Shown here: one piece after another, positions 8,518 to 10,068 of the stretch
How the letters are laid out: each line of letters opens with the position of its first letter
Numbering within the stretch: the first letter of the stretch is position 1
Assembly (NCBI RefSeq): GCF_002105155.1
Contig: NW_019029011.1
Location: 310,001-374,000, forward strand
Length of the DNA: 64,000 nucleotides
Origin: Lobosporangium transversale
Taxonomy: Eukaryota
Direction of reading: 5' to 3'
Made by a program: the position numbers and the translations under genes
The notes under the pieces: generated by a model
What the model was told of the DNA's origin: nothing
The model's input: only the letters and a program-made list of their open reading frames with translations
Databases searched by the model: none

Positions 8518-10068
8518 ATGCCTAAATTCACTACTGCCAATAAAATTACTGCCAATAAGAAAAAGAGCAACTCTTCAAAAGTGTGTTCTCTCCCTTTCAA
8601 TTAGATTGCCAAGTGCTGAAATAGCATTCCAAAAACATTGAACTGCCAACTAATATGCAACTAACATGCAACTAATAGGGACTCTCTATTGTTACGAATC
8701 TCGTCGGCCGAGGAACAACATCTTGCCGCCTTTCCCAAGAACACTTGATTATTAATAACGTAGATGTTTCGTTGAAGGCAATGGAGGCGCGGGAAATATT
8801 TGTGAAGAAAGAAGCGACTTTGAAAAAAGCTGATGAGTTATTGTATGTCACTGTGTTCGCAACTGTGTTCGCAACTGTGTTCGTAGAGCGTGGAATGCGG
8901 AGTTGATACTTATATTAAAAACTCCCTTGCCGTAATATCTCTAGAACTCTCAACTTTATCTTTTCGAAATCAATTCTTAAATCGCTGGTTAGTGACCAGG
9001 TTCTTGGAGAGATATTTGGGACCAGGAAAGTAACCAGGATACCCGAGGAACATTGCAGTTTCCTTAAAGGATGTACCCGAACTGCGGGTACTCAGGATTA
9101 TCAGCATTTCCAGGATAAGCTTTCCAAGGCACCAAATGCTGTCAGAAATTCGCTCACGTTCAAGGTAATCCAGAATATGACCTGTACCGATCGAATATGG
9201 GGGACCAAGAAAGGCCAATCGCTCAATGAAGCGACATACCAGCATTTCTTCGTTACTCCTATAATTGAGACGCTCCTGCATGGATTGGGAGCAACAATTG
9301 CCATGTAATCACGAATTCATTTATAAGTATCTGCCAACCGGCAAAGTTTCCCCTAAAATCGTTTAACGCTCGATTTATGTCTTAACATCTGCTAGAGATT
9401 CTCGCCTCGAGGAGATGCCATCCCTGGATGCCAGTCTGGAAGAATTCCGACCCGACATCATCGCACGGGTAGATGACTTTCCAGTTCTCCTCGTGGAAGT
9501 GAAAAAACCTGGGATCAAGGCTGGGAAACTCCTATCGTTTGATTATCTCAAGCTGCTCTCCATGATGAAGCTGTCTTTAAACAAGATGGTCTGGGGTAAC
9601 ATCAATAACCCAGTGGTTGTTGGTGTGCTTGTCCAAAGTAGGTTTCAGATATCTGTATTTTACGTATGCACATATATATGTTTTTTACACTATAAAGCCA
9701 ATGCGTTTTAGGTACAGCAATGAGATTTTACATGATGGAGTTGAGGTCCGAGGCACTATACATCCCGAAGGAAGTTGGTCGGATGCATTTGCCCACCGAT
9801 AGATCAACTTTCTCACGGATGTGTGGTGGGCTTGGGATTCTGGAAGACGTGCAGTACCCTTGTCATGTTCGAGCTTTGATCCACATTGCATTATAAATTA
9901 GATCTATTATTAATCAGCTCAATGTTTTCTTGTTACTCGTAGCCGCTTGTACAGCGCGTGGCAGAGGCGGTTCGTGGGCGTCAGGCTTCGCCTCCTGGGC
10001 CTTCACCCCAAGAACCCCAAGATCTGAAATATACTCGCCCTTCGTATTTCATACGTCGTCGCGAATAA
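8518..10068 (+). CDS. PD-(D/E)XK restriction-endonuclease-fold protein (Crinkler-REase-like), ~363 aa, 6 predicted exons, transposon cargo
   Basis: Phase-consistent GT-AG exons 8518-8580, 8679-8842, 8945-9304, 9396-9637, 9712-9848, 9943-10068 total 1,092 nt with no internal stop. Motifs NEATYQHFFVTPII..RPDIIARVDDFPVLLVEVKKPG..DYLKL..PVVVGVLVQ. The last donor (GTGCAG at 9849) is weak, so the C-terminus is uncertain. Confidence 0.8.

Follow-up and report, generated by a model that had tools for sequence, protein, structure and literature searches.

This locus of Lobosporangium transversale raises the question of whether a hidden multi-exon gene lying in mobile DNA encodes a working nuclease, and of what such an enzyme would do for the element that carries it. 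The window, meaning the whole stretch of 64,000 nucleotides analysed here (contig NW_019029011.1, positions 310,001 to 374,000 of the forward strand, renumbered from 1), had been read in a first-pass annotation as containing a six-exon cargo gene of the PD-(D/E)XK type, possibly a nuclear DNase serving its element. The reading that we prefer, with a probability of about one half, is that a captured conflict nuclease travels as a passenger in a pogo-type transposon and is muted by splicing.

The gene and its exons

The exons 8518-8580, 8679-8842, 8945-9304, 9396-9637, 9712-9848 and 9943-10068 join, as had been proposed, into an open frame of 363 aa with GT-AG introns of 74-102 nt, and all the motifs listed earlier are present in it, namely NKKKSN (residue 13), NEATY (170), RPDII (214), LLVEVKKP (227), DYLKL (245) and VVGVLV (270). 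The RNA evidence comes from one run, X1, in the form of contigs only, which hold 0.80 of the words. We took X1 for RNA on the grounds that its contigs are joined at GT-AG ends and do not cover introns 2 and 5; rare forms are dropped from such contigs, and level, strand and start cannot be read from them. The features of the gene, with the evidence for each, are as follows.

8453..8458, forward strand: TATAAA (sequence); RNA runs across it
8518..8580, forward strand: exon 1, 21 aa, no family conservation (RNA joint 8580-8679)
8679..8842, forward strand: exon 2, family LVGxG motif and helix (RNA, family profile)
8945..9304, forward strand: exon 3 in its productive form, helical region and NEATY helix at 9225-9239 (family profile 8946-9293; P0001 model)
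9396..9637, forward strand: exon 4, catalytic PD...ExK core and D..K helix (Pfam, family profile, alignment)
9712..9854, forward strand: exon 5, ending after Gln according to the RNA and the family pattern, with no GT there in the window (joint 9852-9941; profile match to 9854)
9943..10068, forward strand: exon 6, RPSY motif and stop (sequence, RNA)

The gene is real, and it is a spliced member of a family spread across the Mortierellaceae. The partial NCBI protein P0001 of L. transversale matches the window at all but 1 of 196 residues, and in its gene model donor 9305 links exon 3 to exon 4; P0001 was the sole relative of at least 141 aa in the word-indexed search. Furthermore, a six-frame scan of the window with a profile of 46 relatives, from which the window-like P0001 had been left out, found exons 2 to 5 in order (E 1.5e-14, 3.7e-22, 8.1e-25 and 1.3e-10) and exon 6 weakly (E 1.8), with no match to exon 1. 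Exon 4 taken alone gave the Pfam matches HSDR_N (E 0.013) and AHJR-like (E 0.047), both below the cut-off. A 12-nt tandem repeat of 2.8 copies occupies 8850-8883, at the start of intron 2.

The protein has 28 aa ahead of its conserved body, polar and basic and, judged by eye, without a hydrophobic stretch. A localisation pattern has the form K-K/R-x-K/R; the basic stretch NKKKSN, to which the first-pass annotation had drawn attention, is present at residue 13 but falls outside this pattern and lies in the unconserved exon 1.

The family and its catalytic residues

A phmmer search with P0001 against 1.84 billion representatives returned 37 matches at E <= 0.001, that is, P0001 and 36 relatives; 20 of the matches were looked up, of which 19 belong to Mortierellaceae genera and are listed as hypothetical proteins, while the last is unnamed. 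Among the 7,995 best candidates scored in the profile search there were 17 matches, 16 of them named Mortierellaceae and one unnamed. The three best relatives share 29-37% identity, and several paralogs occur per genome. The family may reach beyond the Mortierellaceae, since its atlas neighbours fall in unnamed Mucoromycota clusters (score 0.91-0.93).

Of the other 53 rows in alignment A3, 49 retain D140 and 50 retain K156, and position 154 holds Glu in 47 and Asp in 4 (51 of 53). The statement that the catalytic residues are intact is thus borne out both in the DNA and across the family, although the RNA form described below encodes a product that lacks them. The NE motif is found in 39 of the 46 long relatives; the other seven, which are predicted gene models without the NE helix, were not taken as conserved exon skipping. 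The variable part of the protein is its N terminus, with 28 residues ahead of the LxGxG motif here versus a median of 141, and 27 of the 28 relatives with this motif are longer. One L. transversale paralog, P0043, is annotated as a fusion with an IS630/Tc1-like transposase in front (NF033545, E 1.9e-5, below the cut-off), which may reflect either another instance of carriage or a transposon that inserted into the paralog.

The sequence search against solved structures gave no match for P0001 and one unrelated match for the profile (E 0.047), PADLOC matched none of 21 family members, and tblastn of P0044 found nothing in plasmids or phages. A set of 80 metagenome loci, chosen by the short RPDII pattern, was rejected as not being relatives; 7 of the 10 examined carry frames of 1,022-1,092 aa resembling type I HsdR, a name inferred from their length and a weak HSDR_N match.

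These data bear on the possibility that the protein is a secreted Crinkler effector directed against other organisms, which we regard as very improbable. Effectors of the CR type often carry REase domains, and header-less CRN-like proteins occur in Glomeromycotina, according to the portions of the literature available (PMC5289972, PMC6131194), and the atlas neighbours in unnamed Mucoromycota clusters would also be compatible with an effector. Against it, neither LxLFLAK-like nor HVLVxxP-like header motifs occur in any of the 53 relatives, no Crinkler family or kinase is found among the Pfam matches of 41 relatives, and just 28 polar, basic residues precede the conserved body. The earlier remark that no Crinkler header is visible extends, for these two motifs, to the 53 relatives. 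A P-loop was likewise found in none of the 53 relatives.

The predicted fold

The REase fold proposed for the gene product is supported by the model of P0003, a full-length relative with 32% identity to P0001 (E 2.1e-12), which reached a pLDDT of 83.6 and a pTM of 0.84. Its core comprises a helix (138-154), three strands (159-163, 182-186 and 195-199), a second helix (206-229) and a further strand (236-243). At Z >= 8 it matched seven chains, five of which are restriction-type nucleases or uncharacterised kin: DrdV (Z 8.6, rmsd 3.4, 141 aligned), TT1808 (Z 8.6, rmsd 3.2, 120 aligned), 9y1l (Z 8.5), BpuSI (Z 8.3, rmsd 3.9, 151 aligned) and the HsdR fragment HsdR-N (Z 8.3, rmsd 4.5, 130 aligned). 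The other two are mitoribosomal proteins, which we take to have an REase-like fold, and one of them is the top match (Z 9.5; the second has Z 8.5). Because the best structural match is mitoribosomal, the fold by itself is no proof of catalysis.

The model of P0001, without the last strands, presents the same order of elements (best Z 6.5, rmsd 3.6, 77 aligned), and Foldseek gave no match at E <= 0.001 while ranking the same kinds of protein first. Taken together with the conserved residues, the models support an REase fold for the family, and nuclease activity is predicted. A complex prediction of P0003 residues 8-320 with residues 8-113, the latter standing in for the short form encoded by the RNA (see below), scored 0.00, which speaks neither for nor against an interaction.

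The enclosing transposon

The gene is enclosed by a pogo-type transposon of 7,487 bp (7250-14736), and the earlier view of it as cargo is confirmed by the inverted repeats on its two sides and by the intact transposase. The element consists of the following parts.

7248..7249, no strand: left TA target-site duplication (sequence)
7250..8394, forward strand: left terminal inverted repeat, 1,145 bp, beginning CAGTGG (end motif)
7588..7971, forward strand: two 169-nt copies at a spacing of 215 nt within the left repeat (mirror at 14015-14398)
10212..10302, forward strand: intron in the untranslated stretch between the nuclease and transposase genes (RNA joint 10208-10300, GT..AG, cut +3)
10688..12011, forward strand: transposase exon 1, Pro/Gln-rich N terminus, HTH_Tnp_Tc5 and first Asp (Pfam, sequence)
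12109..13574, forward strand: transposase exon 2, DDE_1, with D393/D530/D565 forming DD34D (Pfam, RNA joint 12011-12109)
13591..14736, reverse strand: right terminal inverted repeat (repeat comparison, end motif)
14737..14738, no strand: right TA target-site duplication (sequence)

The sole difference between the two repeats is one base in a poly-T run. That the repeats are nearly identical and the transposase is intact suggests that the copy in the window is young. As the end motif occurs only twice in the whole window, at 7250 and 14736, we rejected a composite of two complete miniature elements. The element is flanked by a host gene ending near 5470 and by an UNC-93-like gene starting at 14933; an older copy of part of the latter, 78-85% alike, lies near 46523-47010. 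Elsewhere the window holds an inverted duplication (15956-18893 and 41201-47010), with two 4-hydroxyphenylpyruvate dioxygenase genes (17725-18893 and 41201-42369) that are 93% alike with flanks 96% alike. Some X1 contigs join the element end to two other flanks, and these loose ends, at 7242 and 7248, suggest at least two further insertion sites in the organism from which X1 derives. A 9-letter loose end also lies at 7245, and a loose end at 7636 hints at diverged relatives of the repeat unit.

The transposase, 929 aa from two exons without an internal stop, lies on the same strand downstream of the nuclease gene, and its intron is confirmed by the RNA joint 12011-12109. Pfam assigns to it PF03184 (E 9.2e-24) and, at the cut-off, PF03221 (E 1.4e-4), and its relatives carry PF03184, PF03221 and PF04218. 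It also has a long Pro/Gln-rich N-terminal extension (10688-11400) and an acidic C-terminal tail (12830-13574), and its closest relatives, mostly unnamed metagenome proteins, share 45-52% identity. Features of the pogo superfamily are found, namely HTH_Tnp_Tc5 with DDE_1, a DDxD triad, inverted repeats and a TA duplication. RNA contigs span nearly all of 8400-13620. A single transcript comprising the nuclease and transposase genes is possible.

Splicing of the nuclease RNA

The X1 contigs join 8580-8679, 8842-8945 and 9637-9712, and introns 1, 2 and 4 of the exon model therefore stand; introns 3 and 5 do not. At intron 3 the RNA uses donor 9165 with acceptor 9395 instead of donor 9305, which removes the following segment.

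9165..9395, forward strand: intron as spliced in the RNA, 231 nt, from the upstream donor AAG|GTAATC (one X1 contig)

The join (joint 9162-9394) lies in one contig of 629 nt, with 218 letters on its short side. Among the X1 contigs there is no join from donor 9305, depth is 0 in the bins 9170-9323, and that of the adjoining bins is wholly accounted for by the 629-nt contig. With 9165-9395 removed, the NEATY helix is gone and the frame is shifted to a stop at 9474-9476, so that this RNA form encodes 175 aa without NEATY, PD or ExK. In one RNA set, then, the exons are not spliced as they had been modelled. Both donors start with GTAATC, and 9165, which is present in the window's own letters, matches the generic consensus at 7 of 9 positions versus 5 of 9 for 9305. 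An RNA fold of 9140-9420 that pairs donor 9305 in a stem was set aside (z -0.30).

For intron 5 the first-pass annotation had left a choice between donors 9849 and 9854, and the RNA join, which reads ...D-V-Q|P-L-V-Q, fits neither with the letters of the window as they stand. The join does agree with the family pattern, in which G-P-L-x-x-A/V-K/Q precedes a helix. Join and pattern both put the exon boundary behind Gln. As the window offers no GT at that place, the ancestral donor can be neither 9849 nor 9854, and one base is missing from the window, through either a mutation or a fault in the assembly. Donor 9854 as written would yield 351 aa, with the core intact and a different tail. Moreover, an unspliced contig (8552-8708) keeps intron 1, at a depth of 19.2 versus 13.4 for the spliced form, and its frame stops after 28 aa. 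Depth that the spliced contigs leave unexplained suggests that intron 4 is partly retained as well.

Relative to the window, the X1 copy has 5 substituted bases, an insertion of 10 nt and, at 11577 in the transposase, a deletion of 20 nt. The NCBI transposase P0073 changes frame at 11577, whereas the window copy is intact (sites 11577 and 11539-11544). Because the deletion coincides with this frame change, the RNA stems from a sister copy with a broken transposase, and the window copy, given the sequence differences, may splice differently. The RNA of a near-identical copy being spliced out of frame, the enzyme is likely switched off.

These findings can be set against the possibility that in-frame splicing is the normal state, with an active nuclear DNase aiding the element, at its donor or target sites for instance, and with the out-of-frame RNA peculiar to the sister copy or to the growth condition. 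The intact frame and catalytic residues speak in its favor, as do the origin of the RNA from a copy with a broken transposase and the productive end of exon 3, which is the conserved one and is used in the NCBI model of the sister gene. Conversely, donor 9165 stands in the window itself with the stronger consensus match, and at the conserved position of intron 5 the window copy lacks a GT. It is well established that a DDE transposase carries out cut-and-paste by itself, and an intact pogo transposase needs no second nuclease. Furthermore, the available part of the pogo survey gives transposase ORFs only (PMC7386202). An active DNase serving the element, as the first-pass annotation had suggested, thus appears unlikely to us.

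Rather unlikely, too, is plain decay, in which a recently captured gene fragment under no selection would be rotting through mis-splicing and the loss of the intron-5 donor. The truncated N terminus, the out-of-frame splicing, the retained introns, the window donor being one base short and the dead transposase of the sister copy would all fit. On the other hand, some 365 codons run without a stop or frameshift, one conservative replacement in 196 aa and one silent change separate the sister copies, and no close parent gene is on record, though annotation evidently misses such genes. An intact frame with its catalytic residues, and no closer parent gene, is better explained by continuing selection for a working enzyme than by a harmless passenger. 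The intact frame and the retained productive donor are indeed the main facts against simple muting.

Transcription from the repeats

Contig depth is 6,000-16,000 over the repeats, values that are summed over contigs and may stem from other copies, versus 12-90 inside the element and 175 in the neighbouring host gene. The repeat RNA is spliced at the following intron, whose orientation indicates that it reads inward.

8036..8174, forward strand (mirror 13811-13950): intron of the abundant inward-reading repeat RNA (joint 13810-13951, CT..AC, depth 3,110; GT..AG in the left copy)

One RNA contig runs from the left repeat across the TATA box to 8581, which makes read-through from the repeat a likely source of the nuclease RNA. 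The TATAAA at 8453 is present as annotated, but with RNA running through it, it is at most a putative start. The repeat RNA (7550-8394, mirror 13591-14440) contains a chain of short ORFs, of 41, 73 and 95 aa; in the last of them a hydrophobic stretch follows Met 7972 and a basic one lies beyond the splice. The repeat matched no Rfam family, and the short repeat ORFs scanned matched no Pfam family.

It is possible to imagine, from the same observations, a splice-switched selfish toxin, in which the DNase would be produced in frame only at mating or sporulation and would harm nuclei or partners lacking the element, with carriers protected by the 175-aa form or by the repeat RNA. Both donors start alike and the productive one is kept, the repeat yields a very abundant spliced RNA, and the family has several paralogs per genome. 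Moreover, in the portions of the sources at hand, a composite Tc1 element of Tribolium with an REase is linked to post-zygotic killing (PMC11342252, PMC6387759) and SPOK1 kills by targeting DNA (PMC9972908). Weighing against a toxin, no NTPase or kinase partner domain accompanies the gene, the P-loop being absent from the 53 relatives, and no antidote was found among the repeat ORFs scanned with Pfam or in the repeat searched with Rfam. We consider such a toxin rather improbable. Speculative and no less doubtful is its extension to a compact drive element in an early-diverging fungus, in which the transcribed repeats would drive the DNase toxin, the two GTAATC donors would act as the switch, and the 175-aa off form would dominate during ordinary growth.

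Comparison with known systems

The REase domains of CR (Crinkler-RHS) proteins, as presented in the available parts of PMC5289972, PMC6131194 and PMC11342252, resemble the family in being eukaryotic PD-(D/E)XK domains that are multi-copy, fast-diverging, linked to mobile DNA and found in free-living fungi. Different from them, the gene considered here has no header, NTPase or kinase, and encodes a stand-alone protein of about 365 aa with a helical N-terminal part. In Tribolium, Medea1 is a composite Tc1 element with a CR-NTPase8 and CR-REase7/DUF1703 gene, which, in the portions of the reports available, offers a likeness in the form of an REase on an element of the Tc1/mariner group (PMC11342252, PMC6387759). 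Here, instead, the element is a fungal pogo element, the gene has five introns and no NTPase, its RNA is out of frame, and killing could be proposed only by analogy.

The Spok genes of Podospora have a built-in resistance domain and lie in a giant tyrosine-recombinase element. Spok also carries a kinase domain. The likeness lies in a DNA-targeting nuclease borne by a fungal transposon, an Enterprise/Starship element in the case of Spok, in the available part of its description (PMC9972908).

With respect to the pogo superfamily, the portion of the survey at hand describes the same HTH_Tnp_Tc5 and DDE_1 domains, DDxD triad and TA flanks, in elements of 1.2-5.2 kb whose long repeats, of 392-856 bp, are confined to insects (PMC7386202). 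Compared with those, the present element is larger (7.5 kb), with repeats of 1,145 bp that are transcribed and spliced, and with a second gene that is not a transposase. Ciliate Tec/TBE elements likewise belong to the Tc1/mariner group and have long repeats and extra ORFs (PMC7325037), and fish AACRNL is a Crinkler-like toxin gene with a degenerate header that hAT and mariner elements have mobilised (PMC12957317). According to the available text of these two sources, what such elements carry in addition is a recombinase, a zinc-finger protein or an ADP-ribosyltransferase, and not a PD-(D/E)XK nuclease (PMC7325037, PMC12957317). Our literature search found no account of the element or of the family; the alignments and supplements of Zhang et al. 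2016 and Lorenzen et al. 2008 may cover the family.

A proposed model of nuclease capture and its significance

On the reading that we prefer, that of a captured conflict nuclease muted by splicing, an element would have captured a conflict-type DNase gene with the loss of most of the family's variable N terminus, and the captured gene would have landed downstream of a strong promoter that faces inward within the long repeat. Read-through would then provide plentiful RNA, in which the spliceosome would favor donor 9165 over 9305 and partly keep introns 1 and 4, so that mostly truncated protein would be made. Copies yielding little active DNase would spare the host and spread. The passenger would not be needed for cut-and-paste, and muting by a stronger upstream donor could allow the element to carry a harmful gene cheaply.

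At this locus a member of an uncharacterised restriction-enzyme-like family, which occurs in many Mortierellaceae and has no Pfam family, lies within a transposon that is complete and apparently young. The locus offers a direct example of the link proposed between CR-type nucleases and mobile DNA, in an element outside the published size and repeat range of pogo. Should productive splicing be regulated, a selfish nuclease would here be kept safe by a switch of a new kind, and the element would be a candidate drive system in fungi for which our literature search found none. If such splicing is unregulated, the element would still illustrate how mis-splicing allows a transposon to bear a harmful gene.
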